A stretch of 64,000 nt of DNA, from NCBI GenBank assembly GCA_023250195.1, contig JAHFBF010000007.1, positions 1,128 through 65,127 of the forward strand, read 5' to 3'. A model generated the notes under the pieces. It had not been told where the DNA came from, did no database searches, and worked only from the letters and a program-made list of their open reading frames with translations. The DNA comes from Candidatus Melainabacteria bacterium (GTDB lineage Bacteria; Cyanobacteriota; Vampirovibrionia; 2-02-FULL-35-15). The position numbers were made by a program, and so were the translations under genes. Of this stretch, positions 3,266 to 39,073 are shown piece after piece. Every line of letters begins with the position of its first letter. Positions within the stretch are counted from its first letter, which is position 1.

Positions 3266-4315
3266 ATGTTAAGCAGTTACAATTTATTTGATCTTGAAAC
3301 ATATAACTATTCTCTTCCAAAAGAGCTAATTGCACAATATCCCTGTGAGAAACGTGATGAGTCTCGGTTACTTTGTTACAAAAGGGATAGGAATAAAATA
3401 TCACACCACAAATTTTATGAGCTTTCAGATATGCTTGGTGAAAATGATGTACTTGTTCTAAACAATACAAAGGTATTGCCTGCTAGATTTTACGCAAAGA
3501 CAAAAGAAGATAAAGAAGTCGAGATATTACTTGTAAATTCCATAAGTCCAGACAATCTAACCTGGAAAGTTTTGGCAAGTCCAAGAAAGCATTTAAAAGG
3601 TCTAGAGATGTTGCATGCAAAGTCTCTAGCACCAATTAACGTCATAGATCCTGACACAATTAAATTTAATTCTCACAACGATCTTGAATTAATCTTAAAT
3701 CAAATTGGTACAATGCCTCTTCCTCCTTACATTAAAAGAAAATCAGAGAACATAGACATTGATCGTTATCAAACAGTCTTTGCAAAAGAGTCAGGTGCTG
3801 TCGCTGCTCCAACTGCTGCATTACATTTTACAGAAGAACTTTTAAACAAAATAAAAAATCAGGGAACTGAAATCTTATACATTACACTGCATGTAGGACC
3901 CGGTACCTTTCTCCCAATAAGAACCGATGATATTAGAGAACACAAATTAATCCCCGAAAGATTCCATATAGAAGAAGAAGTCTGGAATAAAATCCTCAAA
4001 GCTAAAAAAAATAAAAAAAGAATAGTTGCCTGCGGCACGACAACGGTTAGAACAATTGAATATGTGGCATTGGCAGAGACATGCGGCCGTATGTCTCTGC
4101 AAGGATCAAACAATCTTTATATTAAACCAGGTTTTAAATTTCAAATTGTTGATTCATTAATTACAAATTTTCATTTGCCTAAAACATCACTGCTGGTATT
4201 AATAAGCGCTTTTATTGGCTGGGAAAGTGTTAAAAGGATTTACGAAGATGCCATTAAAGAAAAATACAGATTTTTTAGTTATGGAGATGCAATGTTTATC
4301 AATAAAGAACATTAA
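3266..4315 (+). CDS. queA: S-adenosylmethionine:tRNA ribosyltransferase-isomerase
   Basis: LPKELIAQYP, NNTKVLPAR, MPLPPYIKR, RYQTVFA, AVAAPTA, LHVGPGTF, TNFHLPK and YRFFSYGDAM motifs. Confidence 0.98.
   Translation: MLSSYNLFDLETYNYSLPKELIAQYPCEKRDESRLLCYKRDRNKISHHKFYELSDMLGENDVLVLNNTKVLPARFYAKTKEDKEVEILLVNSISPDNLTWKVLASPRKHLKGLEMLHAKSLAPINVIDPDTIKFNSHNDLELILNQIGTMPLPPYIKRKSENIDIDRYQTVFAKESGAVAAPTAALHFTEELLNKIKNQGTEILYITLHVGPGTFLPIRTDDIREHKLIPERFHIEEEVWNKILKAKKNKKRIVACGTTTVRTIEYVALAETCGRMSLQGSNNLYIKPGFKFQIVDSLITNFHLPKTSLLVLISAFIGWESVKRIYEDAIKEKYRFFSYGDAMFINKEH
3602..3629. repeat. Degenerate GTAG-type palindrome inside queA
   Basis: CTAGAGATGTTGCATGCAAAGTCTCTAG, read as LEMLHAKSL; same TTGCATGCAA core as the copies at 43063 and 44946. 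Confidence 0.75.
4073..4100. repeat. GTAG-type palindrome inside queA
   Basis: GCAGAGACATGCGGCCGTATGTCTCTGC, read as AETCGRMSL; GC-rich island in an AT-rich gene. Confidence 0.75.
4258..4299 (+). repeat. queA 3' end, direct repeat copy 1 (42 bp)
   Basis: Matches 6862-6903 at 40/42 positions. Confidence 0.9.
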
Positions 4316-4402
4316 TTAGAATCAAATAAAATCTTAAGTTAATAGCTTCTTAATTTCTTATTTGTATATTTAGGACAAAAGTCCTTTTCAATAAACATAC
4401 AA

Positions 4403-6832
4403 ATGGAACTGAGTCTTCAAAAAGCGCAGCTTGAACTTATTCAAGGAAAACTTATATCAAGAGATAGAAGTGCTACTCCGCTATCCAGCAGAGATAGCAT
4501 TGCTCTAGATGAAAGACCAAGAAGTCTTTCCAGTATAACTCCAGGTGATTTACTAACTAGAGAACTTACTCCAAATGAACTTCGTGAAGAAATTAAATTA
4601 GAAAATAGTGAAGAGACTGATGTTAGAAGAATTAAAGTAAACATTGCTGAACTCCTTATAACTAGAATGAAAGAAGAGTTAGAGCGACTTAACGCCATAT
4701 CTGTGAAATATTATGGAATGCTCGGGAAAGATCTTAAAGCTATAGCTGCTAAAAGATCAAAACAAGCTTTAGAAGCAAAAGATCTGCTATTGGTAAGAAG
4801 TGGTGATTTGCCTCTTTTTAAGATTGGGAGCCGAACTACAATTGACAAATTTATAAAAGTCTTAGAATTTGTAGCAAAGAAAAATGATATTGAGCAGGTA
4901 CTGGATGATGAAATTATTGCTTTAGCAGCCTACAAAGCTACATCAGAAGACGGGTTTTTGTCTAATCTTCCGGATGGGCTATTTGACAATAATACAGAAG
5001 TTCGGAAAGGTGTTCTTGTAAGACATTACATGCTTGATATAGCAAGACTTAGTACTGCACGTGAAATTGAAACTTGCAGGGGCATAAAAGAAGGAATGCT
5101 TAAAGCCAGATTGGATAGGTTATTCAGAGGCTCTTCAGTTCCAGAACTTTTAAAACTGGATTCAGCATTTGGGAGTTTGTATAAAGGAGAAGATCCGCCC
5201 ATCAGAGAATGGCAAGTTTACTCAAACAAATGGCAAGAAACTGATTCCAGAGAATTAGCTAAAAGAGCATGTGCATGGTTTTTAAGGTTTGGGATAAAAG
5301 TTGTAAAAACAGAAGAAGGAAATCTATCTTTTGATGTTGAAAAGATTAAAAGCATTTCTTGGGCACAAGCATTGCTTAAACATGATTTAAGGAGTATGCA
5401 TGAATATTGTGAATCTGCTAATAATGGGAAAAAAATTGTAGAGCTTGGAGCAGAAGGATTGAACTTGCCAAAACCTATAGGCATAAATGGAGAACCTTTA
5501 CTTCCGTGGGAGATTACTTCAGTTGGAATGTGGCAGGAAGTAGACAAGGAAACAGGCAGAATGTTAATAGATGATGTTACAGACTATTTAATTGCCAACT
5601 TAAGAAAATCAAATCCTGAACTCTTCGAAAAAGTTGATCATCATGGATATGGAACAGGAGAATTAAACCCAAAGGAAGCCAGTAAGTTTAAATGGTATGA
5701 AGCCTATAATTTAATAGCAAATGGTTGTTTAGACGGTTCAAAAACAGCAGCTCCTGAAGCACTAAAACGCAGATTGCCCAGATCATTTGGTTGGGGAAAA
5801 AATCAACTCAAGCCTTACCAAATCAAAATTGATGATATGTGGGAAGGGGAAGGTGGAAAAGTATTGTTTAGAAAATCTGTAGCCTGTGCCTTAAGAGAAT
5901 CCGGACTAGGAACTTTTTCTATACATAACAATGAATTAATTTATACCTTTAATAAGGCAGAATTCGAGACTTGGTATGAAACAGAAATCAGACAAAATAA
6001 TAAGAATAACGTTATTGAATTTTTGGCAAAACATGGACTATCTGGAGGATTTCGTTATAAGGCAGGCAGCATTTCCGGGTTATTGAAAATATTGTTTAAT
6101 GTTCCAGCTGGTACAGAGCTAGAGCTAGCTAAGTGCAGAAGCAGCGAAAAAGTAAAAGAAACTATTAAAGACTTACTGACACAAGAAGGAGATCAATTAA
6201 AAATTTCTTTGGGAATAATTAATGAAACGGAAAAGGAAACAATCTTACAGGAAGGGTGCTCTGAAAAATTTGATATCCCGATTTCAAAGAAATGGACAGA
6301 AAAAGCAGAAAGACCTTTTTTAGACTATGGTATTTGTATTAAAGGAAGATATAGCTCAAGAAATCGATTTTCAGTTGATGGAACAAATCTTGAAAAATTG
6401 TTTGGAGACACATCTAGAAATCCCTTAAAAGATTCTCTGGACAAAATGCAAAGCATTTTTCTGTCTTCAAATTTTGAATTAAGGCAATTCGGAAGAATAG
6501 AGGCTTTACTAAAACCTTCAAAAAAATTCTCTGATCAAGATTTTATTAATGTTTTAACTGTAATTTCACAAAACCTGGATGACATCAACTTCAGATCTGA
6601 TACCCCTTTAAAAGACAATTTAAGAAATGTTATTAATGAAACTCTTGAAGATCCAAGAAGATTAAAAGCAATTCTTGAAGAAGCAGTAACCAACTCAAAA
6701 AAAGAGGATAATACAACAAGAGAAATTTTTCACAATGCAAGCCCCCTTGATGCTCTAGAACATATTCTTGATTTTCTCGGACAAGCAATGACAAATCACG
6801 AGATCAGCAAACTGAGAGCAGGAAGAAATTAA
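4403..6832 (+). CDS. Large orphan protein with Trp-rich repeats (DUF4046-like), paralogue of 7025-10567
   Basis: 809 aa. Repeated P-x-(R/P)-(W/E/Y)...W motifs (GEDPPIREWQVYSNKW, LLPWEITSVGMW, LKPYQIKIDDMW); aligns by eye with the downstream ORF. Confidence 0.75.
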   Translation: MELSLQKAQLELIQGKLISRDRSATPLSSRDSIALDERPRSLSSITPGDLLTRELTPNELREEIKLENSEETDVRRIKVNIAELLITRMKEELERLNAISVKYYGMLGKDLKAIAAKRSKQALEAKDLLLVRSGDLPLFKIGSRTTIDKFIKVLEFVAKKNDIEQVLDDEIIALAAYKATSEDGFLSNLPDGLFDNNTEVRKGVLVRHYMLDIARLSTAREIETCRGIKEGMLKARLDRLFRGSSVPELLKLDSAFGSLYKGEDPPIREWQVYSNKWQETDSRELAKRACAWFLRFGIKVVKTEEGNLSFDVEKIKSISWAQALLKHDLRSMHEYCESANNGKKIVELGAEGLNLPKPIGINGEPLLPWEITSVGMWQEVDKETGRMLIDDVTDYLIANLRKSNPELFEKVDHHGYGTGELNPKEASKFKWYEAYNLIANGCLDGSKTAAPEALKRRLPRSFGWGKNQLKPYQIKIDDMWEGEGGKVLFRKSVACALRESGLGTFSIHNNELIYTFNKAEFETWYETEIRQNNKNNVIEFLAKHGLSGGFRYKAGSISGLLKILFNVPAGTELELAKCRSSEKVKETIKDLLTQEGDQLKISLGIINETEKETILQEGCSEKFDIPISKKWTEKAERPFLDYGICIKGRYSSRNRFSVDGTNLEKLFGDTSRNPLKDSLDKMQSIFLSSNFELRQFGRIEALLKPSKKFSDQDFINVLTVISQNLDDINFRSDTPLKDNLRNVINETLEDPRRLKAILEEAVTNSKKEDNTTREIFHNASPLDALEHILDFLGQAMTNHEISKLRAGRN

Positions 6833-6861
6833 GAAACGGTAAATTTATTATTTAATCAAAT

Positions 6862-6910
6862 AGAAAAATACAGATTTTTCAGTTATGGCGATGCAATGTT
6901 TATTGAATAG
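6862..6910 (+). pseudogene. Displaced copy of the queA 3' end (EKYRFFSYGDAMFIE*)
   Basis: 42 bp direct repeat of 4258-4299 with two synonymous changes (TTT/TTC, GGA/GGC), followed by its own stop codon. Confidence 0.85.
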
Positions 6911-7024
6911 TTTCTAAGCAGATTTTAAAGGAGAAATTGCATAGTTCACTGATTTAACCTATTTAGCTTGCTCCCCCTGTAAAATGTTAAAGACTTCTTT
7001 TTAGTTTAAGAAAAATTTTAAAAT

Positions 7025-10000
7025 ATGAGTATAAATTTAACGGTTCGTTCAGTAGGCATTCCTAAAACAGGTCCTGTTACCCCTTCAGATTCACTTGCTA
7101 TAAATGGTTCTGCAACAGACCATAGAAATGGTTCTTCTCCCACTGTTAATACTTCTGCTTTGGCGATTTTACTTAGCAGAGCATCAATCTCTCCATTAGC
7201 AAGAACAAAAATTGAGCCTGGTGCAGATACAAAAGAAGCAGCAGGAAGCAAAAATAAAACAATAGGTTCTCAACAAATAAAATTCACTCCATATACTCAT
7301 CCAACACCAGGACAATCAGAAGTCTGCATAAGAGGTAAAGGCAAAGATTCAAAAATCCTTATTCCTTATGACCCAAAAACTATACCTGATCCTAAGCAGA
7401 TCCCAAGAAGCGAGATAAAAATAAATGGACTGAATAATGATTATATAAAACAAGCAAGAAGAGTTTCAGATGCAATTCTTGAAGAATGGAAAGCAGCCTA
7501 CGGATTACGAGCCGAATATGCAACTGTAAGAGATGCTTATACAGAAGAGCTTAAAGGCTCATTTAAATATAAGGTTAAAGACGCTGGTGATGAAGGGCAA
7601 GAACAAAAAAGAATAAAAGTCCGCTACAAATCAACTGAAGCAAAAACTGCTCTTAGAGGAGAAATGTCAGCAGCTAAAAGAAAATGCGAAGAGCATCCAT
7701 TTGGCAGGCTTTATGGAAAACATACTTCCACAACAATGGAAGTATTCAATGGAGTATATGAGCAAAAAGCCAATGAACTGATAGCCTTAGATAAAGTAGA
7801 TCTGAAAGATGATCCTGCATTTAAAACTCTTGTTGCATATTTATGCTTGAGAAAAGAGAAAGAAGCAGGGCTTAGCATGCTTCCACATGGACTTTTAAAT
7901 CATGATGATGAGCATCTAGTTGAAAAAGTAAGAGTGCTTGGCACCTATTTGTTTGTAAATAAATTAGGACTTGATACTGCTGAAAAATTTGAAAGATTTA
8001 AGAACTGGACCAATGCATTTAATGAAGGTGACTTACCACAAGTAGGTAAGCTTATATCAAATGTTGAGCTTTTAAAGTTAATGTTACCAGGATATCTTGA
8101 TGGAGAAAATCCACCTGTTAGAGAGTGGCTTGTATCTGCCACAAACAAATGGCGTGGTGATGATAGTGAACTTCTTGCAATTAAAAGAAATGCTGAAAGG
8201 GCCTGTAAGCATGTAATCTCTGCTCAAGAAGGTATTGTAAAGGAAGACGGAACAATTGACGTTGAAAAGTTTGCAGAAAAGGACTGGGGAAAGATTTTTC
8301 ATGAAGAAAAATATGGATTAAGAGGAGCTATTGGTCCTTGTATTTATATTCCGGGGGTAATCGGTGCAATAAACCTTGCAATACCAGGAATGATTGGAGG
8401 TAAAAATGGTTTACCAAGAGCAAAATTTAAATATCCAGATAAATGGGATGAAGGAAGCAGACTGGAAATCATTGATGAGTTGACTAGATATATAGTTGAA
8501 AGAAAACTAAAGCTGACTGATGAACATGGAAAAGCAACTGCAGAAAAAATAAAACAAGTTACAAACTGGCATGAACAATTTGATGAAGAATGTGCAGGTT
8601 GTCTAAGACGCTCTGGAGTAATGACTGCAGAAGCAGCACTTAAGAGAGTTTATCCTCACTTATTTGGATGGAGAACAGAAACAGATCAGGTTAATCCAGG
8701 CGACATAAGATCTTCAGGAATGTGGGACAGTGAAGCTGGAGAAAAACTTTTCAAATTAAAATTTGCAAAAAGCCTTCATACTGTTTTTGAGAAGTTAAAA
8801 GAAGCTGGTATAGAAGGTTTTGAAAACCATGGGGTGAAATTTTATCCTAATATTGAATATCCCTTACGCTTGCCTAGAAAAGATTTTATTAGTTTGAAAA
8901 ATTATTATATTGCTCATGGGATAAGCTGGCAGGAACATTTTCTTGTTTTTAATCTAGCTGGTGGATTTGCTGAGGTATGTAAATCCACTGAAAGAGCATT
9001 TGAATTAACACTTGGAAAGAAAAACAAAAGAACCAATTGTTTTGGTACTACTGATATTTTAGTTGCTGATGTTATTGACAAGAATCCTATACGTAATTCA
9101 CTGCTGATAGACCTTTTAAAAGATTTTCCTCCTCATCTTAAAGGAGCTGATATTAAAATTAACAATTCAGAAAAAAGCCTGAGAAGACCTGATTATACAG
9201 GTGTTGAAGATACTTGTCTTGAGCCGCTTCTTGCACATAGGCCACAAAGTATTGTTCTTGAAAAGACAGAAGCTCTATATAACGCTTTTGCTGCAGCTGT
9301 TTTGCCTTGTCAAAAGAAGGATAAAGAAACTCAGGTAAAAGATAATTTTACTGCTCTTGAAAAAATTTTATCAGCTGTTTATCCTACAGGGGACAGAAAA
9401 AATGATCTTATACTTTCAGACCGAAGACTGGTTCACCTATTAACTGCAATAAGGGATAACATCATTGATGAAACAAATATAGACGGTGAATTAAAAGCAA
9501 GACTAAAGGATCTCATAACCAGAATATGCAGTGTTAAAAAACCCAGCAATACTCCAAGAGAAGTACTGCTAGCAGCTTGTCAAACTGATATCAGATATGG
9601 AGAAAGATTTAATGCCTTAGGCACATTAAATAAAGTTATTGAACATGTCTTTGAACTTATGGCAATTCATGAAATGAGATATCTCCGAGAAAATGATTCT
9701 AACACTTCTCACTTTCAAAGAGTTTTAGGAAGTCTAGAAATTGTTGAAGGCTCTAAAGAGCTTGAAGAAGATGTTGTTGAAGAAGTTACAGATGAAGAAG
9801 TTACAGAACAGGCTGAAGAAGCAGACCCAATCCGTCCACCAGATGAAGATGATGAATTACCTGATGTGGATTTGGGTATTGTTACTGAGCAAACAAAAAG
9901 AATTGCTGAGGGGAGAGAAGAAGAAGAAGAGACAATAATCAGAACCCTTGTAGAAATTGCTCAGAATAAAACATCTGGCAGAAGACCTTTGACAGAATTA

Positions 10001-10567
10001 TTTAAATTAATCTATTCAGGTGAAATGCCAGTTCAGTTACGAATCCTTTATCAGCTGCATGAAAGATCAAGAAAAAGATCTCTGAATAAATTTGATTATG
10101 CTTCACTTAGAGCAAAAACATTACCAACTACAAATATTACATCTATAGTTAATCCTGAGGATGGCAGTGTTGCAACTCAACTGATTGATAAAGAATTACT
10201 TTCCTGTATACCTAAATGGTGGCCAACCAATCGCGGTGAGCCTATTGCTGTACCATTGCTTTATTACAATAGTACTCTTTATGTAGGTATCCATGAAAGT
10301 TCATCAGATAAATTAGGACAAACACTTATAGGGTCTGCTAAAGACTGTGAAGTTAAATTAATTCAGATTAAAGAACCTTCATGGTCAGTACTTGTTGAAT
10401 TTTTCAGAAGAAACCATCGTTATAAAGCTGAAGTCAAGGGTAAAGAAGCAATAAAACAGTTTATTCAAAAAGCGGAAGAAGATAGAGCTATAGAAAATCT
10501 CGCTGCACTTAGAAAAGCAGTGCCAGAATATAAAAAAGAAACTCTACAAAAGACATTCCAGTCTTAG
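7025..10567 (+). CDS. Large orphan protein with Trp-rich repeats (DUF4046-like), acidic linker and possible GspE/PilB N-terminal-like C-terminal domain
   Basis: 1180 aa. Motifs GENPPVREWLVSATNKW, IIDELTRYIVERKLKL, AALKRVYPHLFGW and SSGMWDSEAGEKLF; Ser/Pro/Thr-rich N-terminus. Confidence 0.75.
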   Translation: MSINLTVRSVGIPKTGPVTPSDSLAINGSATDHRNGSSPTVNTSALAILLSRASISPLARTKIEPGADTKEAAGSKNKTIGSQQIKFTPYTHPTPGQSEVCIRGKGKDSKILIPYDPKTIPDPKQIPRSEIKINGLNNDYIKQARRVSDAILEEWKAAYGLRAEYATVRDAYTEELKGSFKYKVKDAGDEGQEQKRIKVRYKSTEAKTALRGEMSAAKRKCEEHPFGRLYGKHTSTTMEVFNGVYEQKANELIALDKVDLKDDPAFKTLVAYLCLRKEKEAGLSMLPHGLLNHDDEHLVEKVRVLGTYLFVNKLGLDTAEKFERFKNWTNAFNEGDLPQVGKLISNVELLKLMLPGYLDGENPPVREWLVSATNKWRGDDSELLAIKRNAERACKHVISAQEGIVKEDGTIDVEKFAEKDWGKIFHEEKYGLRGAIGPCIYIPGVIGAINLAIPGMIGGKNGLPRAKFKYPDKWDEGSRLEIIDELTRYIVERKLKLTDEHGKATAEKIKQVTNWHEQFDEECAGCLRRSGVMTAEAALKRVYPHLFGWRTETDQVNPGDIRSSGMWDSEAGEKLFKLKFAKSLHTVFEKLKEAGIEGFENHGVKFYPNIEYPLRLPRKDFISLKNYYIAHGISWQEHFLVFNLAGGFAEVCKSTERAFELTLGKKNKRTNCFGTTDILVADVIDKNPIRNSLLIDLLKDFPPHLKGADIKINNSEKSLRRPDYTGVEDTCLEPLLAHRPQSIVLEKTEALYNAFAAAVLPCQKKDKETQVKDNFTALEKILSAVYPTGDRKNDLILSDRRLVHLLTAIRDNIIDETNIDGELKARLKDLITRICSVKKPSNTPREVLLAACQTDIRYGERFNALGTLNKVIEHVFELMAIHEMRYLRENDSNTSHFQRVLGSLEIVEGSKELEEDVVEEVTDEEVTEQAEEADPIRPPDEDDELPDVDLGIVTEQTKRIAEGREEEEETIIRTLVEIAQNKTSGRRPLTELFKLIYSGEMPVQLRILYQLHERSRKRSLNKFDYASLRAKTLPTTNITSIVNPEDGSVATQLIDKELLSCIPKWWPTNRGEPIAVPLLYYNSTLYVGIHESSSDKLGQTLIGSAKDCEVKLIQIKEPSWSVLVEFFRRNHRYKAEVKGKEAIKQFIQKAEEDRAIENLAALRKAVPEYKKETLQKTFQS

Positions 10568-10613
10568 CAACTTAATTTACTTCTGCCTTGATACGATTTA
10601 TAATTAATTTTCC

Positions 10614-11096
10614 ATGGAATCAATCCTATCCAAAATTAAAATCGAAAAAGCCAAGGCAGAAGATTGGCAGGAGATCCTGCAACTCATGAAAGAAACAGAT
10701 AGAACTGTTTTCTTTACTGGGAAAGAAAGTTATGAAAAATTCTATGTTGTACGAGAGCCTGATCCAGAAAAGATTATTTGTTCATTTGCAATTGAGTTTA
10801 AAAATGAAATTGCAATTTTAAAATTTTTAGGTGTGAAAAAAATCTTGCAGAGAAGTGGAGCAGGTAAGCACATTGTTAACAAAACTCCTGAACTGTTAAA
10901 AAAACTGGGAATTAAAAAGCTTTATGCCTCCACATGGGAAGCCCCGGGGTTCTGGAATAAAACTGTTTTTAAAGAAATTGAAATTAAAGATATAAAAGAT
11001 AAATTCTTTTTGGATTATTTAGGTGAACTTGAAAAAGGATTTCCATATGAATACAATAATCTTCTAAAAAATTATTTGCTTCAGATAAGTGACTAA
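10614..11096 (+). CDS. GNAT family N-acetyltransferase
   Basis: LGVKKILQRSGAGK acetyl-CoA motif A; APGFWNKTVF motif B. Confidence 0.8.
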   Translation: MESILSKIKIEKAKAEDWQEILQLMKETDRTVFFTGKESYEKFYVVREPDPEKIICSFAIEFKNEIAILKFLGVKKILQRSGAGKHIVNKTPELLKKLGIKKLYASTWEAPGFWNKTVFKEIEIKDIKDKFFLDYLGELEKGFPYEYNNLLKNYLLQISD

Positions 11097-11244
11097 TCCC
11101 TACGAAAACAGTCTGCTTTAAAGGGTCTTTTAAGGTTAAAAAATTAAAACATTATAAAATCTCTATTTAATTTAATAGATTTTAATCCCTTCGCTAAAAG
11201 CATTCCACAGCATGTTTCTACGGTGTTGTACAATCATCTTCATA

Positions 11245-12174
11245 ATGGACAGTTTAAAACAAAAAAGAATTTTAATTGTTGGAGCTGGTGCCATAGGATG
11301 TTATTTTGGTGGAAAGCTTATACAAAATGATTTTAATGTAACTTTTGTTGCCCGTGGGAAAACCCTTGAAACACTAAAACAAAATGGATTGACTATAAAG
11401 GAAAAAAATGTCTTATCTAATTTTCCAATAAATGTTGTCTCTGATACACAAGACTTAGGGACATTTGAATATATTTTTATGTGTGTAAAATCAAAGGATA
11501 CAAAGTCTGCTACAGAAAAAATAAAAGATAACATTTCAAAAAATACTTCTGTAGTTTCTTTTCAAAACGGAATTGACAATGAAGAAATTATAGGCAGTGT
11601 GATTGGAATAGATAAAGTTATTGGTGCATCTTTATATGTTGCTTCTAAGATGATAGAACCAGCTATAGTAGAAACCACAGGAATAGTTTATTTAGAAGTC
11701 GGGGAATTAAATAGAACAAAAACAGACAGGATCCTGGAACTTCAAAATATTTTAAAAACTTCTGGTATTGATTGTAACGTTTCATTCGATATATGGGCTG
11801 AGCTATGGAATAAGCTCATAAGAAATGCTTCTATAAACCCTATAAGTGTTTTAAGTAGAAAAACTGTAGGTGAAGTATTGGATGATAAAAAACTATATGA
11901 ATTATTGAGAAGCACCATGCTTGAAGTAAAACATGTAGCATTTTTAAATGGGATCAATATTGAGGATGAAATTGTAGATTTTCACTTAAAAAATCTAAAT
12001 GAATACAGAAGCTTTAAGACCTCTATGCTTCAGGACTTTGAAGCAGGCAAACCAATTGAGTTGGAAGAACTTGTCGGAGTAGTAGTCAGAAAAGCAAAAG
12101 AGAAAAATATTTCTGTACCAAACACTGAAAGTGTTTATAATAGTTTATTAAAGCTGACCAGTGTTTATGCATAA
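11245..12174 (+). CDS. panE: 2-dehydropantoate 2-reductase (ApbA/PanE family), copy 1
   Basis: GAGAIG, CVKS, SFQNG, WNKL and TSMLQD motifs. Confidence 0.9.
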   Translation: MDSLKQKRILIVGAGAIGCYFGGKLIQNDFNVTFVARGKTLETLKQNGLTIKEKNVLSNFPINVVSDTQDLGTFEYIFMCVKSKDTKSATEKIKDNISKNTSVVSFQNGIDNEEIIGSVIGIDKVIGASLYVASKMIEPAIVETTGIVYLEVGELNRTKTDRILELQNILKTSGIDCNVSFDIWAELWNKLIRNASINPISVLSRKTVGEVLDDKKLYELLRSTMLEVKHVAFLNGINIEDEIVDFHLKNLNEYRSFKTSMLQDFEAGKPIELEELVGVVVRKAKEKNISVPNTESVYNSLLKLTSVYA

Positions 12175-12193
12175 TTTTTAAAGTCAATATTCC

Positions 12194-13165
12194 ATGAAAA
12201 GTATTAAAGATAAAAAGTTATTAATCTATGGCACTGGTGCTGTCGGTGGGTATTATGGTGGTGCACTGGTTAAAGCCGGATATGATGTTACTTTCGTGGC
12301 ACGTGGAAAAACTTATGCGGTATTAAGAGAAAATGGATTAACTTTAATTACAGACGGTAAAAAAGAAATAATACCTATCAATGTAAATGCAATTCATGAA
12401 TTACCTCAACAGGAGAGATTTGATTACATTTTTATCTGTGTAAAATCAAAAGATACAAAAGTTGCCGCAGAACAAATTAAAAATAATGTAGGTCCGAGTA
12501 CAAGTGTTTTATCATTTCAAAATGGTGTAGATAATGAAGAAATTATTGGGGGAATTGTTGGGATTGATAAAGTTATCGGAGCAAATGTATATGTAGCTTC
12601 AATGCAAATGGAACCTGGAGTAATTGACCAGTTTGGATATAATGCAGTTGTAATTGGAGAGTTAGATCGAAAGCAATCAAAAAGGGTCTCAGAGCTAAAA
12701 AATATCCTTGAATCAGCAGGAATTTTATGTACTATTCCGGCAGATATCATGGCTGAACTCTGGAATAAGCTCGTTTGGAATGCATCATTTAACCCGGTAA
12801 GTGTTGTAACAGGAGAAACTGTAGATAAGATTTTAGAAAACAAGGAATTATTTGAACTTGTAAGAAACATTATGATAGAGGTAAGAGATGTCGCTATTGC
12901 ACATGGAATTAATATAAGAAAAGACACTGTTGAATTTAATTTAGAAAGATCAAAAGGAGTTAATAAAAGAACTATGGATGGAGCTCAGAATTTTATTGGT
13001 TTTAAAACCTCTATGCTTCAGGATTTTGAAAGAGGCAAACCACTGGAAATAGAAGAGCTGGCAGGCGTAGTAATTAGAAAAGCTAAAGAGAAGAATATCC
13101 CTGTACCAAATATTAAAAAAGTTTATAATGAAGTCAAACAAAAGACGATCAAAACAAAAGTCTAA
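12194..13165 (+). CDS. panE: 2-dehydropantoate 2-reductase (ApbA/PanE family), copy 2
   Basis: GTGAVG, CVKS, SFQNG, WNKLVWN and TSMLQD motifs; tandem paralogue of copy 1. Confidence 0.9.
   Translation: MKSIKDKKLLIYGTGAVGGYYGGALVKAGYDVTFVARGKTYAVLRENGLTLITDGKKEIIPINVNAIHELPQQERFDYIFICVKSKDTKVAAEQIKNNVGPSTSVLSFQNGVDNEEIIGGIVGIDKVIGANVYVASMQMEPGVIDQFGYNAVVIGELDRKQSKRVSELKNILESAGILCTIPADIMAELWNKLVWNASFNPVSVVTGETVDKILENKELFELVRNIMIEVRDVAIAHGINIRKDTVEFNLERSKGVNKRTMDGAQNFIGFKTSMLQDFERGKPLEIEELAGVVIRKAKEKNIPVPNIKKVYNEVKQKTIKTKV
12383..12410. repeat. Degenerate GTAG-type palindrome inside panE copy 2
   Basis: GTAAATGCAATTCATGAATTACCTCAAC, read as VNAIHELPQ; absent from the aligned region of panE copy 1. 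Confidence 0.6.
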
Positions 13166-24180: not shown

Positions 24181-24212
24181 CTGTAGGTACGTAGCATGCT
24201 ACGTACCTACAG
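24181..24212. repeat. Perfect 32 bp GTAG palindrome overlapping the purQ stop codon
   Basis: CTGTAGGTACGTAGCATGCTACGTACCTACAG; near-identical to 62455-62482; lies between convergent genes. Confidence 0.92.
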
Positions 24213-27211: not shown

Positions 27212-27213
27212 TT

Positions 27214-29382: not shown

Positions 29383-29392
29383 ATACATATCT

Positions 29393-29977: not shown

Positions 29978-30027
29978 TTTTTATATAGCTCCAGACAAGC
30001 TGGAGTGTCCCTCGATCAATCCCTTTC
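29978..30027 (-). repeat. Start-proximal repeat (CAGCTTGYCTGGAGCTATATAAAAA) before gmk
   Basis: 24/25 identical to 60501-60525. Confidence 0.75.
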
Positions 30028-30035
30028 ACTGGATC

Positions 30036-30063
30036 GGATTTGCCCAATAAATGGGACAAATCC
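30036..30063 (-). promoter_or_regulatory. Bulged-U hairpin motif, copy 2 (gmk leader)
   Basis: GGATTTG-T-CCCA-TTTAT-TGGG-CAAATCC, just downstream of a TATAGT -10-like box. Confidence 0.55.
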
Positions 30064-30185
30064 TTTAAATACTATAGTGTTTTATTTCATTCTTTAATTT
30101 CTGTCTTCTGTCTTTCTTGCTTACTTCTACCCTTTAAATGAGTGTACAATATCTATGATATATTTTCTCTGTTAATTAAAGCGTT

Positions 30186-31385: not shown

Positions 31386-32098
31386 AACACGAAATTATTG
31401 GAAATGACATGCAGGTAGCTATTGTGGAACTTGATACAAACGAGTTTGTTCAGGCAGATGCAGGCAGTATGTTTTTTATAGAAGGTAATGTAGATATGGA
31501 TCTCAGAATGCCTGGTGGATGGGTTGGCGGTTTAAAAAGAATGTTTCTTGGGGAATCATTTATGCTTCCTGTTTTCAAATCAAAATCCATAGGTTCAAAA
31601 GTTGCATTTGCACCGCCATATCCCGGTAAAATAATTGAGCTTGAAGTAACAAATGATAAGATCTGGCAGGCACAGAAAAAAAGTTTTTTATTTGCTTATG
31701 GAAATATTTCTATAAATATCAGTTTTATCAGAAAATTTAAAGTTGGTTTTTTTGGCGGGGAAGGTTTTATTCTTGAAAAGTTTTCAGGAAATGGAAAAGT
31801 TTTTATAAATTGCGGCGGAATGGCTATTGAAAAAACTTTGGACATAAATGAAACCATTCAAGTTGATACCGGCTGTATAGTAGCTTTTGAAGACAGCATA
31901 CAATATGACGTCAAACGAATTAAAAGTATTAAAACAGCAATTTTTGGTGGGGAAGGTTTATTTTTATCTACTCTAACAGGTCCCGGGAAAATTATCCTAC
32001 AGTCAATGCCATGGTCCAGATTCCAAAATGCAATGTCTAATGGTAATGGCAGCAAAGGGCTACTTAGTGATGCGGGAAAGATTTTTGGTGGAGATTAG
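31382..32098 (+). CDS. AIM24 (TIGR00266-like) family protein
   Basis: Repeated GES/GGEG units; VDTGCIVAF and LTGPGKIILQS motifs. Confidence 0.9.
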   Translation: MKHEIIGNDMQVAIVELDTNEFVQADAGSMFFIEGNVDMDLRMPGGWVGGLKRMFLGESFMLPVFKSKSIGSKVAFAPPYPGKIIELEVTNDKIWQAQKKSFLFAYGNISINISFIRKFKVGFFGGEGFILEKFSGNGKVFINCGGMAIEKTLDINETIQVDTGCIVAFEDSIQYDVKRIKSIKTAIFGGEGLFLSTLTGPGKIILQSMPWSRFQNAMSNGNGSKGLLSDAGKIFGGD

Positions 32099-32236
32099 AA
32101 GATATCAGAGGATCTATTAAGATTCAGTTAAATTGAGAAATATCAAATATAACCATTCAGCAACTTTGTATTAACTGAGAACTATTAAAGACAATTATTC
32201 AGTAATTTTTTATTAACTGTTAACTATAAAATCAAA

Positions 32237-33850: not shown

Positions 33851-33927
33851 GCCAACTGCTTGAATTTACATTTTGTTCGCTATTATAATTCTTTTCAGGA
33901 CTGCTGACTTATGCTATAAATAAAGCC

Positions 33928-34302
33928 ATGTCTTCTCAATTCACACAAATTGCAATTTTTACAATAGTTGGTTTTGTCCTTGGTGCTACTTTACTTACAC
34001 TTTCAGCAACCATACAAAGAATTTTTGGAATATCTAATCCTACAAAAGTAAAAACAGAATCATATGAATGTGGAATGAAAGTTTTTCACGACACAAAGAT
34101 CCAGTTTGATATTAAATATTACTTATTTGCACTTATGTTCATTGTGTTTGATGTAGAGTTTGTTTTTCTTGTACCATGGGCTGTGATTTTTGATATTTCA
34201 TGTAATAAAATTTTCCTTATCATTGAAGCTTTTATTTTTGTTTTTATCCTTGTACTTGGACTATATTATGCATGGCAAAAAGGTGTGTTGGAATTTGATT
34301 AA
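33928..34302 (+). CDS. ndhC: NADH dehydrogenase subunit A (NuoA/NdhC)
   Basis: YECGM, YYLFALMFIVFDVE and YAWQKG motifs. Confidence 0.93.
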   Translation: MSSQFTQIAIFTIVGFVLGATLLTLSATIQRIFGISNPTKVKTESYECGMKVFHDTKIQFDIKYYLFALMFIVFDVEFVFLVPWAVIFDISCNKIFLIIEAFIFVFILVLGLYYAWQKGVLEFD

Positions 34303-34359
34303 AACATGTAAATCTCACTGATTCTAAAATTGTGAGTATAATTTACTTGTAAAGAAAAA

Positions 34360-34968
34360 ATGACAGAACCACTTATAAAATTACCAAGTAAACCAGTTCC
34401 TGAAGATTTAAAAGGAAATGTTATTGTTGCAGGACTTTCTGGGTTTTTGGATCTTATTTATAATTGGGCAAGATCAAATTCAGTCTGGCCGCTTACCTTT
34501 GGAACATCATGCTGCGCAATTGAAATGATGTCTACAGGAATGAGTAAGTTTGATATTTCAAGATTTGGATCTGAAGTTTTTAGAGCTACTCCCAGACAGG
34601 CAGATTTAATAATTACTGCAGGTACTATAACCAGAAAAATGGCACCCGCACTTATCAGACTCTATGAGCAAATGCCAGAACCAAAATATGTAATTGCAAT
34701 GGGAGCATGTACTATTACAGGCGGAATGTTTCATGATTCTTATTCAGTGGTACAGGGAGTAGACAGAATAATCCCTGTAGATGTTTATGTGCCGGGCTGT
34801 CCACCAAGACCAGAAGGTTTATTACACGGACTGATGATTTTGCAGAGAAAAATAAGAAATGAATCTTTGGCTTCGCGAAGACTTTATGCAAAAGATCATC
34901 ATCCTGTAACATATGTAGATGAGTTAACCGGTCTGCCATTTCCATTTAAAGAAGAACAAAAAGTATAA
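34360..34968 (+). CDS. ndhK: NADH dehydrogenase subunit B (NuoB/NdhK)
   Basis: CCAIEM, TPRQADL, MGAC and PGCPPRPE motifs. Confidence 0.95.
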
Positions 34969-34970
34969 CA

Positions 34971-35531
34971 ATGTCAACCGAACAAACTATTCAAACACTG
35001 CCGCCGCCAGCTCCTCCTTCAGCAGGGGAATTTGGAAAGTTTTTAAAGGACAAAGGAATTAATTCAATCCCTTTAGGAAATGATGCTGACAGTATAGAGA
35101 TGCTGGAGCTTGAAACAAATAACTTAGTTAATGCCTGTAAATTATTAAAAGAATCAAGTGAAACTGATTTTGATTTTCTTGTTTTAATGACATCTACAGA
35201 TACAAAAAAAGGCTTCCAGTCAATTTACACATTACAATCCATAAAAAGCAAAAAATCACTCCGAATAAAGGTTACAGTACCAAAAGATAATCTAAAAATC
35301 CCAAGTGTAAGTCACCTCTGGAACACAGCAAACTGGTACGAACGCGAGGCATATGACATGATGGGCATAGTTTATACTAACCATCCAAATTTAAAAAGGA
35401 TTTTAAACCCTGACAACTGGGAAGGATACCCGCTTAGAAAAGATTACATACCACCCACTGATTCCCTAAATGGCCCTCATCCACTTACTGAAACTGCAAT
35501 GGCTGAGAAAACTTTAGGTAAACCTAGCTAA
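34971..35531 (+). CDS. ndhJ: NADH dehydrogenase subunit C (NuoC/NdhJ)
   Basis: ANWYEREAYDM, HPNLKRIL and GYPLRKDY motifs. Confidence 0.93.
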   Translation: MSTEQTIQTLPPPAPPSAGEFGKFLKDKGINSIPLGNDADSIEMLELETNNLVNACKLLKESSETDFDFLVLMTSTDTKKGFQSIYTLQSIKSKKSLRIKVTVPKDNLKIPSVSHLWNTANWYEREAYDMMGIVYTNHPNLKRILNPDNWEGYPLRKDYIPPTDSLNGPHPLTETAMAEKTLGKPS

Positions 35532-35550
35532 ATATAGAAAGGAAAAAGCA

Positions 35551-36774
35551 TTGTCAATAGTTAAAGACACAAACCAATTAGAAAAAAGTTTTAAAACCGA
35601 TGAAATGGTTATAAACATGGGCCCTCAACATCCATCTACCCATGGAGTTTTAAGACTGATTTTAAAGTTAGATGGAGAAATTGTTAAAGATTGTGAGCCT
35701 GTTATTGGTTATTTGCATAGAGGAATGGAATGGCTTGGACAAAACCGGACCTATGTTCAGTATCAGGCACTTGTAGATCGTGTGGATTATTTAGCCGGGA
35801 TGTCTGACAGTCATGCTTACATTCTGGCAGCAGAAAAAATTGCAGGGATTAAGGTTCCTCTTCGTGCAGAATACATAAGAGTAATTTGTTCAGAGTTAAA
35901 CAGAATTATTTCCCATCTTCTTGGACTTGGGATTTTTCTTCTTGATCTTGGAGCAATGATGGGTTTTCCATTTTATACATTTAGAGATCGTGAATCTATC
36001 CTTTCATTTTTAGAAGAAGTTTCCGGACAAAGAATGATGTTTAATTATTTTAGAATTGGTGGAGTATTTAAAGATCTGCCAAAAGGCTGGACAAGGAAAG
36101 TAAAGAAATGGATTAATGAAGAGTTTTTTAAATATGTTGATGAGTATGAAGCTATCGCTACAAATAATCCGATATTTCTTGTAAGAACACAAAACATAGG
36201 ATACCTGGATCCAAAATTAGCTATCAGCTACGGTGTTACCGGTCCAAATCTCAGAGCATCCGGCTTTGATCTTGATCTCAGAAAGCACAGTCCATATTCT
36301 GTTTACGACAAGCTTGAATTTAATGTCCCTGTATTAACTGCCGGGGATACTCATTCCAGATACAAATGTAGAATTCAGGAATTAAGAGAATCAGCAAAAT
36401 TAGTTCTTCAGGCAATAGATAAACTTCCCGGTGGAGATACAGAAGATTTAGAAAAAAATAAAGCTGCTTTAACAAGCGGTGACAATCCTGCTTATAAACC
36501 AGAAGATCTCATGGTATTAGCAAAAGGTAAAAATGTAGCCCCTTCCTTTAAATGCGGTCCTGGTGAAGCTTATACAGCAGTTGAATCTCCACGCGGACAG
36601 TTAGGCGTTCACTTAATAGCAGACGGCAGTTCAGTACCATACAGAATAAAATGGCGTTCGCCGTCTTTTAACAATGTTTCGATTTTAGCTGAATTGGTAA
36701 AAGGACATCCTGTAGCAGATACTGTAGCAATATTCAGCAGTCTTGATGTCATTCTTCCTGACGTAGATAGATAA
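35551..36774 (+). CDS. ndhH: NADH dehydrogenase subunit D (NuoD/NdhH)
   Basis: NMGPQHPSTHGVLRL, GYLHRG, ESPRG and C-terminal DVDR; GAAAGGA SD before the TTG start. Confidence 0.96.
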   Translation: MSIVKDTNQLEKSFKTDEMVINMGPQHPSTHGVLRLILKLDGEIVKDCEPVIGYLHRGMEWLGQNRTYVQYQALVDRVDYLAGMSDSHAYILAAEKIAGIKVPLRAEYIRVICSELNRIISHLLGLGIFLLDLGAMMGFPFYTFRDRESILSFLEEVSGQRMMFNYFRIGGVFKDLPKGWTRKVKKWINEEFFKYVDEYEAIATNNPIFLVRTQNIGYLDPKLAISYGVTGPNLRASGFDLDLRKHSPYSVYDKLEFNVPVLTAGDTHSRYKCRIQELRESAKLVLQAIDKLPGGDTEDLEKNKAALTSGDNPAYKPEDLMVLAKGKNVAPSFKCGPGEAYTAVESPRGQLGVHLIADGSSVPYRIKWRSPSFNNVSILAELVKGHPVADTVAIFSSLDVILPDVDR

Positions 36775-36781
36775 ACAGTAT

Positions 36782-37363
36782 TTATTCTTTTTCAAAGATG
36801 ATCATGGATATGTTGCCTCCATTTGCCTCTATTCCTAATCTTCTTGCTATATCACCACCATGTTCGTTTTGTCTTAAAGAAGAATCCCTTGCAACCGCCT
36901 TCCATAACTCATCAAAGTGTTTTGAAGCAGTATAACCTTCTCCATAAGGTACTACCCGAGCTATTTTTAGAGCAGCTCTTTCCTTATCCCAAATAAAATA
37001 ATAATCATCTGTACCTATTGCAGGTCTACAGTCTTTTGAATCTCCTGTAACTCTTAGCGTTAAAATTCCTGGAACCTGAACGCCCTTTCTTCCTCTTTGT
37101 GTTTCAGTTTGCCATTCACTCACTTTATACGTTACGGGTAACTTGCGATTACTGGGCTGCATTGTTCTTCCAACTAAATTAGGCAACATAGTTTCTAATG
37201 CAGCTCTAGCTGTGGAACTGGCTTCTTCTGGAACTGACTTAGTTATTTCATCTATAGCAGCAGTAATTTCTCCTGAATTAGATATACTTAAACCTTTTTC
37301 TTGAGTTGTTCTTGAAGCGCCCCCACCAATTAACGAAAATGGCCATGGCACTATTTTCCACAT
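36782..37363 (-). CDS. Hypothetical protein (193 aa)
   Basis: Strong SD (AAGGAGA); no recognised motif. Confidence 0.7.
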   Translation of the reverse strand: MWKIVPWPFSLIGGGASRTTQEKGLSISNSGEITAAIDEITKSVPEEASSTARAALETMLPNLVGRTMQPSNRKLPVTYKVSEWQTETQRGRKGVQVPGILTLRVTGDSKDCRPAIGTDDYYFIWDKERAALKIARVVPYGEGYTASKHFDELWKAVARDSSLRQNEHGGDIARRLGIEANGGNISMIIFEKE

Positions 37364-37445
37364 ATTTGATCTCCTTCCTTATTTAACCAATTTAATTGTT
37401 AGAAATAATAGCATTTCCAGAGCATCATCAGGTTAAAATATAGAT

Positions 37446-38471
37446 ATGCAAACTATGAGTACAAAACCAATATACAGTGGCAAAGCTAAAGACATTTTTG
37501 AAACAGAAGACCCCAATGTCTTTCGGGCCTATTTTAGAGACAGCGCTACAGCATTTAATGCCCAGAAAAAAGGCGAAATACATGGTAAAGGCAAAGTCAA
37601 TGCCACAATATCAGCACTTTTATTTAATCTTGTAGAACAAAATGGAATTAAAACACATTTTATAAAGCAAGTTACAGAAAACGAACTTTTAATTAAAAAG
37701 GTAAATATTATTCCTCTTGAAGTTATTGTTAGGAATATTGCTGCAGGAAGCCTTTGCAAAAGGTTAGGAATTAAAGAAGGAAAGATTTTAAAAACACCGA
37801 TAGTTGAATTTAGTTATAAAAAAGATGAGCTTGGTGATCCACTTTTAACAAGAGCATATATTAAAAATGCACTGGAAATTACTGATGATAAAACTTTGGA
37901 TTATATTACCGAATTAACTCTAAAAGCAAACGATATCTTTAAAGATTTCTTTTTAAAAATTGGAATCAAAGTAGTTGATTTTAAACTTGAATACGGTTTT
38001 GATAAAAATGGTGATGTACTTTTAGCCGATGAGCTGTCACCTGATAATTTCAGATTCTGGGATGCAACAACAAATGAAAAACTTGACAAAGATAGATTTA
38101 GACAGGATCTTGGGAATGTAGAAGGTGCATATCAGGAGATGTTAAAACGTATAAAAGAAGGTTGCGCTGGTGTCATTGCGAGGAGTGAAACGACGAAGCA
38201 ATCTCAAAAACGTAATGTGGAAACTCAACACTTCTCTGTCCGAGTCCAGGTTCTTCCAAAACAAGACATCTTAGATCCACAGGGACAGGCAGTTGAAAAA
38301 GCATTAATATCAATGGGTTATAAAAATATAAAAGACTTAAGAATTGGGAAAGAAATTGTTTTTAAAGTAAAAGCTGAATCATCTGAAAAAGCAAAATCTG
38401 AAGTTGACCAAATGTGTGAGCGGCTTTTAGCTAATCCAGTAATTGAAGACTATAAAATTGAAATATCATAA
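37446..38471 (+). CDS. purC: PurC (SAICAR synthase) fused in-frame to PurS
   Basis: YSGKAK, IPLEVIVRN, DFKLEYG, ADELSPD and DKDRFR, followed by ILDPQG...LLANPVIEDY (PurS). Confidence 0.93.
   Translation: MQTMSTKPIYSGKAKDIFETEDPNVFRAYFRDSATAFNAQKKGEIHGKGKVNATISALLFNLVEQNGIKTHFIKQVTENELLIKKVNIIPLEVIVRNIAAGSLCKRLGIKEGKILKTPIVEFSYKKDELGDPLLTRAYIKNALEITDDKTLDYITELTLKANDIFKDFFLKIGIKVVDFKLEYGFDKNGDVLLADELSPDNFRFWDATTNEKLDKDRFRQDLGNVEGAYQEMLKRIKEGCAGVIARSETTKQSQKRNVETQHFSVRVQVLPKQDILDPQGQAVEKALISMGYKNIKDLRIGKEIVFKVKAESSEKAKSEVDQMCERLLANPVIEDYKIEIS
38172..38213 (+). repeat. Half CGTC-type element translated as the PurC-PurS linker
   Basis: GTCATTGCGAGGAGTGAAACGACGAAGCAATCTCAAAAACGT (VIARSETTKQSQKR) matches the left arms of 47710-47807 and 53084-53172. 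Confidence 0.85.
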
Positions 38472-38502
38472 TATAAAACGCTAAGTCTTAACCTAATAAA
38501 AC
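38451..38502 (+). repeat. purS 3' end plus downstream spacer, direct repeat copy 1 (52 bp)
   Basis: 51/52 identical to 39022-39073. Confidence 0.92.
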
Positions 38503-38607
38503 TAATTCTAAAAAAATAATAAACTCTTTAAATATTAGATTAATTTTTTTTAATAATCTTGCACTATTTCATTTCTATATGTTACGGTCAAATTAGGAGA
38601 TAAAAAT

Positions 38608-39042
38608 ATGAACTTTGATAATGTTGGCCCCCATTTAAAAACAACTTTCCCAGGTACAAATCAAGAACCTACAAAAGCAATTACACTTATTAAGGATCCA
38701 ATTACTCCACGAGTTGAAATAAATTTAAAAGCTTTTACAGAAGAGGAAGGACTCCCTCCTAGTATTGCTGCACGAGAAGCTATAGGACGTTTAATAGCAT
38801 TTATAACTGATGAAAACGAAAAAAGAATAAATATACACTGTGGCGATCCACATGAAACTTGTTTAGGTGGACTTAGATATACTGGAGACGCTAGACAAGC
38901 ACAGAAGGATGTAGCAGATTTAACTTCTCGTGCAACACTTGAAACTATTCAAAATAGAACTGGAGAATCTATATCTGTGAAACAGTTTAATGATCCTGTT
39001 GATGGTAATCCTGTTATTTCATATAAAGTTGAAATATCATAA
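38608..39042 (+). CDS. Orphan protein (144 aa) ending in a copy of the PurS C-terminus
   Basis: AGGAG SD; ends NPVISYKVEIS versus PurS NPVIEDYKIEIS. Confidence 0.75.
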   Translation: MNFDNVGPHLKTTFPGTNQEPTKAITLIKDPITPRVEINLKAFTEEEGLPPSIAAREAIGRLIAFITDENEKRINIHCGDPHETCLGGLRYTGDARQAQKDVADLTSRATLETIQNRTGESISVKQFNDPVDGNPVISYKVEIS

Positions 39043-39073
39043 TATAAAACGCTAAGTCTTAACCTAATAAAAC
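39022..39073 (+). repeat. purS 3' end plus spacer, direct repeat copy 2
   Basis: 51/52 identical to 38451-38502. Confidence 0.92.

Follow-up and report, generated by a model that had tools for sequence, protein, structure and literature searches.

Copies of housekeeping gene ends between stacked orphan genes in a Melainabacteria genome: possible scars of recombination between haplotypes

How do orphan genes come to be stacked beside housekeeping genes, with copies of the ends of those housekeeping genes lying between them? We addressed this question in a Candidatus Melainabacteria genome (G000; 2.21 Mb in 7 contigs, 34% G+C, completeness 98.9%, contamination 0.07%), in a stretch of 64,000 nucleotides that we refer to as the window (G000:C3:1128-65127). 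At two loci, one downstream of queA and one downstream of a fused purC-purS gene, a near-identical copy of the 3' end of the housekeeping gene lies between two orphan genes. An original prediction, made from the sequence alone, described a candidate system in which variable orphan cassettes are stacked on duplicated gene ends without an integrase. We conclude that the repeats are parts of no dedicated machine or gene-capture system. The best explanation, to which we assign a probability of roughly 55%, is that they are recombination scars from the joining of two haplotypes through one homologous and one microhomology junction.

Locus 1 is encoded entirely on the + strand. Its conserved left anchor is queA (3266-4315, 349 aa; Pfam Queuosine_synth, E 1.8e-119), which contains the first repeat, a1 (4258-4302, encoding ..EKYRFFSYGDAMFI), close to the end of this functional gene. 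Next come orphan A (4403-6832, P0002, 809 aa, without a family), the second repeat, a2 (6862-6910), which is a remnant of the queA 3' end, and orphan B (7025-10567, P0003, 1180 aa). Locus comparison and Pfam define a conserved right flank (10614-13165) that consists of a 160-aa gene and two tandem PanE/ApbA paralogues. These ketopantoate reductase genes (11212-12174 and 12194-13165) are ~52% identical and give DNA repeats of 73-82% identity. The repeat search confirmed the predicted 42-nt direct repeat with 2 mismatches (4258-4299 versus 6862-6903, family D9). Read in the queA frame, a2 encodes ..EKYRFFSYGDAMFIE* and ends at its own in-frame stop codon (TAG, 6908-6910). The coding comparison of a1 and a2 gave 3 differences, all of them synonymous (3/3). 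The remnant also shares its frame with orphan A, with one TAA stop and 10 codons between them (6830-6910); we draw no inference from this because a shared frame is expected by chance in about 1 in 3 cases. A 26-nt stretch of the remnant is identical to queA of G039, a genome from another family, although this was spotted after the fact and is possibly a coincidence of codon choice.

Orphans A and B are related but strongly diverged, with 25% protein identity over 698 columns (E 2e-23), and the DNA upstream of A is unrelated to that upstream of B. A search of 5.8 billion proteins returned 12 homologues of A and B, none with a name or a Pfam family. We found no further copies of A or B in the genome and no usable Atlas match for orphan A.

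At locus 2, the left anchor is a purC-purS fusion gene (37446-38471, + strand, 341 aa; Pfam SAICAR_synt, E 6.7e-83, and PurS, E 3.1e-30). Repeat b1 (38451-38505, + strand) comprises the last 6 codons and the stop of purS followed by 34 nt of intergenic sequence. Repeat b2 (39022-39076, + strand) is a remnant of the same 3' end with the same 34 nt, fused in frame to orphan P0005 (38608-39042, + strand, 144 aa). Orphan P0006 (39189-40151, + strand, 320 aa) follows; it has no family and 3 homologues. The conserved right flank is a VWA-domain gene (40158-41060, - strand, 300 aa; Pfam VWA) that is present at the purCS locus in 5/5 relatives. BLAST recovered the predicted extent of the repeat (52 nt, 1 mismatch), and the repeat search extended it to 55 nt with 2 mismatches (38451-38505 versus 39022-39076, family D7), of which one is an I>V difference in the coding part and the other falls in the non-coding part.

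At up to 3 mismatches, the queA and purS repeats each match the window only twice. When the patterns were matched in the same way in 100 dinucleotide-preserving shuffles, two matches were obtained in 0/100 shuffles for either repeat. Self-BLAST detected no extra copies of either repeat in the 2.2-Mb genome, and neither is dispersed.

The proposed layout of gene, orphan, gene-end copy and orphan is found at locus 1. At locus 2, the P0005 open reading frame (ORF) runs into the second purS copy and stops at the purS-derived stop codon, so the layout is a gene fusion and not an orphan, a gap and a copy. P0005 homologues end in ..GNPVISYRIT (P0019) and ..GNPVISYRTT* (G001), whereas the window protein ends in ..GNPVISY-KVEIS*. 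The native last 3 codons were thus replaced by the purS tail (..ISY-KVEIS*), and exactly three codons were lost at the fusion. In the DNA alignment, P0005 follows its own family to a TAT codon and the purS sequence thereafter, and directly before this switch 10/12 nt are common to both partners (AATCCnGTnATT). The junction at the queA locus has only a loose ATYAAA..G similarity. We also considered whether P0005 is a PurS paralogue and rejected this, because its homologue P0019 has a best BLASTP E of 6.8 against purC-purS and the shared ..NPVI..Y.. is the junction microhomology only.

The claim that the two orphans of a locus are related yet diverged holds for A and B but not, as worded, for locus 2. 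P0005 and P0006 are unrelated by BLASTP (best E 12), and a comparison of their profiles (4 and 6 sequences) gave a probability of 15% (E 0.0018) over 65 N-terminal columns. The AlphaFold2 models (pLDDT 78.9 for P0005 and 71.6 for P0006) both comprise two strands, two helices, a strand, two helices and two strands (P0005 residues 25-142, P0006 residues 23-135). We take this like order of predicted elements as a hint of a relationship and not as proof. The model of P0006 also suggests two consecutive domains with a similar element order, the first of which matches P0005. A Foldseek search returned no PDB match for the P0005 fold at E <= 0.001.

The genome was recovered from a metagenome, and the repeats could be an assembly chimera of two strain haplotypes; other queA-like ends do occur in the same runs (loose ends at 4299 and 6905). 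We assessed the assembly of locus 1 using Logan contigs of four runs (X1-X4), two of which hold all the sampled words of 3900-7300 and two others part of them. One Logan contig of run X1 (8694 nt) covers 3424-11000 and one of run X2 (9223 nt) covers 3319-11000, each with 0 differences, and a2 is bridged in both runs. Since X1 and X2 are possibly the source samples, this agreement represents a second assembler on possibly the same reads and not independent DNA. No long exact word that could mislead a de Bruijn graph is common to both sides of the junction. Two observations are too weak to use: a contig joint from 4186 to 6880 in X3 (depth 2.76, shorter side 21 letters) and a loose end after 6905 in X4; stretches without cover in X3 and X4 are uninformative. 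Given the intact contigs, the lack of a shared word at the junction and a genome in 7 contigs with 0.07% contamination, we regard a chimera as extremely improbable.

Variation among relatives and further scars in the genome

Relatives were compared at the level of genus and family and beyond, and no strain of the same species was among them. We identified queA orthologues in 34 of the 41 genomes searched and purCS orthologues in 5/5 relatives, and inspected 9 queA loci and 5 purCS loci for gene-end copies. Five of the nine queA loci (L022, L024, L025, L026, L028) have a homologue of A or B in the downstream region, and the other four have none; the A homologues have 25-33% identity. A B-like gene directly follows queA in G004 (44% identity) and G008 (39%), which marks B as the old neighbour of queA. 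The order is B-like then A-like in G008, four copies are present in G005, and G010 has an empty hot spot, with the 160-aa right-flank gene immediately downstream of queA. Between purCS and the VWA gene, G001 (same genus) has a P0005-like gene only, without a repeat. In the same interval G003 has a P0006-like then a P0005-like gene, G004 a P0006-like gene, and G002 and G009 neither. Both loci are hot spots between conserved genes, with cassette sets that change among lineages, as had been anticipated. A separate search for the queA locus in a genome contig collection returned 9 loci, all from distant phyla.

The downstream copy of the gene end is absent from 8/9 of the relatives' queA loci and from 5/5 purCS loci. 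Besides the window genome, such a copy was found in G039 only, as a 162-nt repeat (91% identical) that reaches from the end of queA into the beginning of the gene behind it; two small ORFs, encoded on the opposite strand, lie between the repeat copies. The G039 remnant has decayed: it differs by 2 synonymous and 7 non-synonymous changes and has lost its stop.

Judged from these comparisons, the repeats appear young (95-96% identical and missing in relatives) and the cassettes old and diverged. This combination excludes a recent simple duplication, in agreement with the original prediction: the repeats are 95-96% identical, versus 25% for A and B, and the regions upstream of A and B are unrelated. 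It equally speaks against an old tandem duplication of gene end and cassette, after which the cassettes would have diverged while gene conversion kept the repeats alike. A and B are indeed paralogues, and P0005 and the N-terminal half of P0006 share their secondary-structure order. However, the remnants are missing although the relatives carry paralogues, the unrelated upstream regions do not fit, and conversion tracts of 42-55 nt that halt at a stop codon are unlikely. We therefore consider this history very unlikely.

The same scar is found elsewhere in the genome, as the original prediction had proposed to check. We screened G000 by self-BLAST for direct repeats of 28-260 nt, within 15 kb of each other and touching a stop codon. 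Across the genome as a whole, at least seven such scars occur at protein-gene ends and two at tRNA genes, and the repeats at loci other than the two in the window are 39-128 nt long. A cytochrome c assembly (ccsA-like) gene (C1:6962-7882; Pfam) has its copy 163 nt downstream, and a D-Ala-D-Ala dipeptidase (VanX-like) gene (C5:206991-207710; Pfam) has its copy 177 nt downstream. The 1228-nt spacing at prpD (C6:466786-468162; Pfam) holds a ParE-type gene pair. At an uncharacterized gene (C2:171199-171948), 122 nt are repeated with 100% identity (C2:171823); the copies are spaced 1366 nt apart, with a single 343-aa gene in opposite orientation between them. A putative PIN-domain gene, assigned by inspection and not by a Pfam scan, is followed by two cassettes, with three copies of its end region (C6:22252, 23193 and 24211). 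A 68-aa ORF also has a repeat pair (C6:507310/507497). The repeats at tRNA-Arg and tRNA-Met (49 and 41 nt, both 100% identical) span the anticodon arm to the 3' end. The genes that flank the C2:171199 locus are directly adjacent in 4/4 relatives with data. At prpD, the downstream gene is directly adjacent in three relatives (G001, G004 and G009) and ~880 nt off in G002; the G003 locus is cut by a contig end.

Five inserts in the genome are small (95-146 nt) and contain no gene. They are two-hairpin intergenic modules with flanking repeats of ~40-72 nt. Three of the five belong to multi-copy families, whose other copies are often immediately followed by a start codon and for the most part have no repeats at their flanks; a flanking repeat accompanies 1/5, 1-2/7 and 2/6 of the long copies in the module families. 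Because no machinery was found, the cargo is unrelated from one locus to another, and the same scar surrounds ~100-nt gene-less inserts and occurs at tRNA genes, we do not retain the label of a system.

How the repeats may have arisen

In our preferred explanation, a second haplotype, most likely from a closely related strain, would have carried another cassette behind the same conserved gene end. Its DNA would have entered the cell, or served as a template for copying, and would have become linked to the resident chromosome. The homologous junction would lie inside the conserved gene end. The illegitimate junction would lie at a few bases of microhomology, where the end of a cassette was joined 40-60 nt before the gene stop of the other haplotype. 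The product would be the gene, cassette 1, a short gene-end remnant and cassette 2, in which the functional gene is whole and both cassettes are kept. The route may have been homology-facilitated illegitimate recombination of incoming DNA, or a template switch during replication or repair. At locus 2, since a P0005-like gene directly follows purCS in G001 without a repeat, the simplest history would be that a segment from inside the purS end, carrying P0006, was joined behind the resident P0005. We infer the origin of the second haplotype in another strain, its entry route and which cassette arrived last; the data suggest that the donor was a relative's allele.

Taken together, the number of scars in this genome with their varied cargo, the codon-resolved junction and the allelic-looking gene ends point to haplotype recombination and away from an activity of the cargo. 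At the VanX-like gene, the C2:171199 locus and the ccsA-like gene, similarity extends past the perfect repeat exactly to an altered stop and then ends, as expected of two alleles of one gene in different contexts. The in-frame stop is kept in 6/6 remnants, and altered stops are still stops in 3/3. The six cases from G000 have 7 synonymous and 6 non-synonymous coding differences. Were the remnants simply decaying as dead copies, roughly a quarter of their changes would be expected to appear synonymous. The predicted uptake of an allelic cassette through a homologous and a microhomology junction thus survives as the best reading, with the purS junction at TAT in its favour and the donor step unproven.

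We searched for machinery that could have produced the repeats. No integrase or transposase gene was detected beside the orphans, whose neighbours are housekeeping genes (Pfam of orphans and neighbours), as the original prediction had noted, and no recombinase gene (Pfam Phage_integrase, Resolvase) was detected on contig C3. The genome has 4 Phage_integrase (tyrosine) and 1 Resolvase (serine) matches, all on other contigs. The four orphans have no Pfam, PHROG or PADLOC family and thus no toxin, immunity or defence family. Eight repeats share no motif beyond what was seen in random gene ends used as controls (2 shared words at k=7 versus a control mean of 4.4, and 0 versus 0.6 at k=8). No hairpin was found in the repeats, with fold z-scores of -0.06 (purS) and -1.88 (queA). 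A diversity-generating retroelement was rejected because the genome has no reverse transcriptase (no RVT_1 match) and the mismatches (T>C, A>C, A>G, T>C) are not adenine-specific. An integron with attC sites was rejected on the lack of a hairpin, of an integrase on the contig and of an Rfam match at two repeat-array loci.

The recombinase genes on the other contigs raise the alternative of non-autonomous integrative elements: a site-specific recombinase acting in trans would move the cassettes, with the repeats as attL and attR. The tRNA-Arg and tRNA-Met repeats, which run from the anticodon arm to the 3' end, a classic integrase target, are consistent with this, as is the finding that the queA end is affected in two families. 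However, this contig has no recombinase gene, the repeats share no k-mer beyond controls and vary fourfold in length, and at least seven different target genes would need matching specificities. In addition, the left junction at purS lies inside the cargo ORF and truncates P0005. We consider this alternative distinctly unlikely. Together with the intact contigs of locus 1 in two runs and the variable cassettes, the lack of a cognate integrase or site motif means that none of the outcomes named in advance as contrary to the predicted recombination was observed.

Several observations weigh against haplotype recombination. By our estimate, the excess of synonymous differences is not significant once changes in the live copy are allowed for. 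The parental haplotype was not recovered: an exact 40-mer of the remnant and its downstream DNA had 0 matches in metagenome_contigs, which may omit near relatives, and Logan contigs contained nothing beyond the low-depth X3 joint with its 21 letters. The comparison with Logan contigs covered locus 1 only. ComEC and DprA homologues are present in the genome and Ku was not found, which permits the incoming-DNA route without showing it, but ComEC and DprA are also found in control genomes that are not competent. A repeat of this kind is present at the queA end in two families (G000 and G039), a hint that certain sites may be preferred. The perfect identity of some repeats (122 nt at C2:171823; 49 and 41 nt at the two tRNA genes) fits a duplication of the target in place equally well. 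Finally, one and the same A-rich motif forms the end of all five small inserts, immediately ahead of the second repeat, and such defined ends suggest an element rather than random illegitimate junctions.

These last observations bear on the main rival, an in-place long target duplication by insertion. Two nicks, one in each strand of the target and 40-160 nt apart, or a similar staggered break would receive a DNA segment, fill-in would duplicate the target, and the two copies would start identical and then drift. This would be an active mobility process for the cassettes and for the ~100-nt two-hairpin modules. Beyond the perfect repeats, the shared A-rich end and the three inserts from multi-copy families, it is favoured by the G039 remnant, which decays like a pseudogene (2 synonymous and 7 non-synonymous differences, stop lost). 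The same outcome is also described in the available excerpts of PMC2853133, where the mechanism is given as not known. On the other hand, repeat lengths of 39-162 nt imply no fixed geometry, and most copies of the module families lack a flanking repeat (1/5, 1-2/7 and 2/6 have one). Similarity up to a preserved altered stop at the VanX-like, C2:171199 and ccsA-like loci means that the 'inserted' DNA began with an allelic gene end, and the P0005-like gene after purCS in G001, which has no repeat, means that P0005 is no fresh insert. We regard in-place duplication as unlikely, though it ranks first among the alternatives to haplotype recombination. The broader proposal that this lineage has an active, recombinase-free insertion process at gene ends, with target duplications of 40-160 nt, segments that range from promoter-like two-hairpin modules of ~100 nt with an A-rich end to cassettes of several kb, and a preference for certain conserved ends such as that of queA, strikes us as doubtful. 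If true, such a process would provide a natural system for solving the 25-year-old problem of how long target duplications arise.

Other repeats in the genome

Two-hairpin modules of ~95-125 nt with A-rich ends lie at C1:71183-71276, C1:434217-434320, C1:7886-8007 and C6:507375-507496, in addition to further copies of their families. The module families are also present in the window (3187-3230, 30023-30066 and 56196-56239), and many copies lie directly before a start codon or a tRNA gene. These modules may be terminator-plus-promoter units and are possibly mobile. The window also has 27-nt perfect palindromes in intergenic positions (24183-24209, 43063-43089, 44946-44972 and 62455-62481), which are likely terminator hairpins.

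Some candidates from the self-BLAST screen were not counted as scars. Many intergenic repeat pairs belong to hairpin repeat families, and C2:160012/160669 looks like a tandem paralogue pair. A copy of the SpoU methylase 3' end was left out because its layout is different: the gene end and ~20 nt (C1:428117-428180) are copied at C1:430450-430513, directly upstream of a putative RNase J start at a distance of two genes, which suggests an old rearrangement of the gene order. The C4:101828/102942 pair and the C7 (109.9-126.7 kb) and C5/C7 arrays were rejected as gene-end remnants because their 85-nt unit is a conserved dispersed repeat that is never the end of a long gene.

The 85-nt repeat occurs at C5:223674-240066, at C7:260-3691 (L049) and in relatives (L060-L063). 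It was found in 8/11 same-family relatives, with 80-94% DNA identity across genera, and is better conserved than the surrounding proteins. In the arrays, the copies are spaced 0.7-2 kb apart. Each copy of the repeat amounts to a short open reading frame of 27-50 codons whose peptide-like reading is conserved. All four C5 copies that follow a + strand gene (4/4) continue its reading frame after one or two stops. The C7:109896-126734 region (L048) is an island of accessory genes with 9-11 direct copies of a 55-160-nt repeat between the genes, which include a YafQ-type toxin pair, two Fic genes, PPK2, a P-type ATPase and trypsin-like peptidases. The core of this repeat reads like a short peptide with a fixed stop and has no Rfam match and no hairpin; weaker copies are present in 5/11 same-family relatives.

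Two further tRNA genes have repeats downstream. tRNA-His (C3:69309-69378, outside the window) is copied almost whole 1222 nt downstream (70531-70603, 92% identical), and three copies of a ~100-nt repeat follow tRNA-Pro (C1:12544-13790). Both look like further att-like or duplication scars. ARAGORN predicted 42 tRNA genes and no transfer-messenger RNA (tmRNA) gene in the genome, although a permuted or divergent tmRNA may escape this search.

Comparison with known systems

Our results indicate how variable orphan genes can accumulate next to housekeeping genes with no mobile-element gene involved, which is relevant to the reading of hot spots in metagenome-assembled genomes. We compared the two loci to known systems that produce similar arrangements. 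Integrase-bearing islands and prophages that insert into gene 3' ends, such as e14 or phage 21 in icd, carry a replacement end. As at the loci described here, the gene remains whole and its 3' end is present in two directly repeated copies that differ silently. Such islands encode their own integrase and use a fixed core site, neither of which was found here. Integron cassettes and attC arrays without an integrase resemble our loci in that promoterless, ORF-sized units are stacked with a repeat after each. They differ in the attC hairpin and IntI, which were not found here, and the repeat of each of our loci derives from its own neighbouring gene.

Orphan stacking was reportedly described by Jackson et al. 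in 2009. The available excerpts of Kirchberger et al. 2017 (PMC5361080) propose homology-facilitated illegitimate recombination as the origin of orphan immunity arrays and of displaced Rhs C-termini. Stacking at type VI secretion system (T6SS) effector-immunity, Rhs and contact-dependent inhibition (CDI) loci is, according to these excerpts, like the arrangement here: a conserved homologous anchor upstream, an illegitimate other end, an old module and a 3' remnant pushed downstream, and no integrase (PMC5361080). The arrays described there grow by repetition (PMC5361080). With respect to microhomology, the purS junction lies at TAT after a 10/12-nt patch, whereas the queA locus has only the loose ATYAAA..G. 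In the T6SS, Rhs and CDI loci, as far as those excerpts describe them, the anchor is a toxin or delivery gene and the cargo consists of immunity genes with a clear selective reason. Here the anchors are metabolic genes, and the orphans gave no match to a toxin or immunity domain. Excerpts of a study on pneumococcus describe transformation-driven unequal exchange between sister chromosomes (PMC3784515). By analogy, such an exchange offers a way in which donor ends might pair out of register.

Insertion with long target duplication was reportedly described by Nobusato et al. in 2000, and published cases, catalogued since then, are nearly all restriction-modification genes, whereas the cargo here is of many kinds. 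The available excerpts of Furuta et al. 2010 (PMC2853133) characterize it by direct repeats >30 bp that occur nowhere else in the genome, the lack of mobility genes, frequent overlap with gene 3' ends and occasional gene fusion. One example there, from H. influenzae, has a 46-bp repeat with 44/46 identical positions that covers 15 bp of a gene end, and the mechanism is stated to be not known (PMC2853133). Our loci agree with this description in their flanking repeats of >30 bp (42 and 55 nt), which are unique in the genome and adjoin no mobility gene. A single-copy target in relatives was seen at genus or family distance only (the empty site in G010, G001 without a repeat, and two other loci that are uninterrupted). 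In the excerpts, long target duplications were sought and found for restriction-modification genes; here the inserts are orphans, a ParE-type pair and ~100-nt gene-less modules. Unlike the cases in those excerpts, the gene-end copies here differ in the manner of alleles, and the cassette that comes next is related to the inserted one but diverged from it. The pattern has thus already been published in kind, and its lineage, its cargo and the density of cases in one genome are new.

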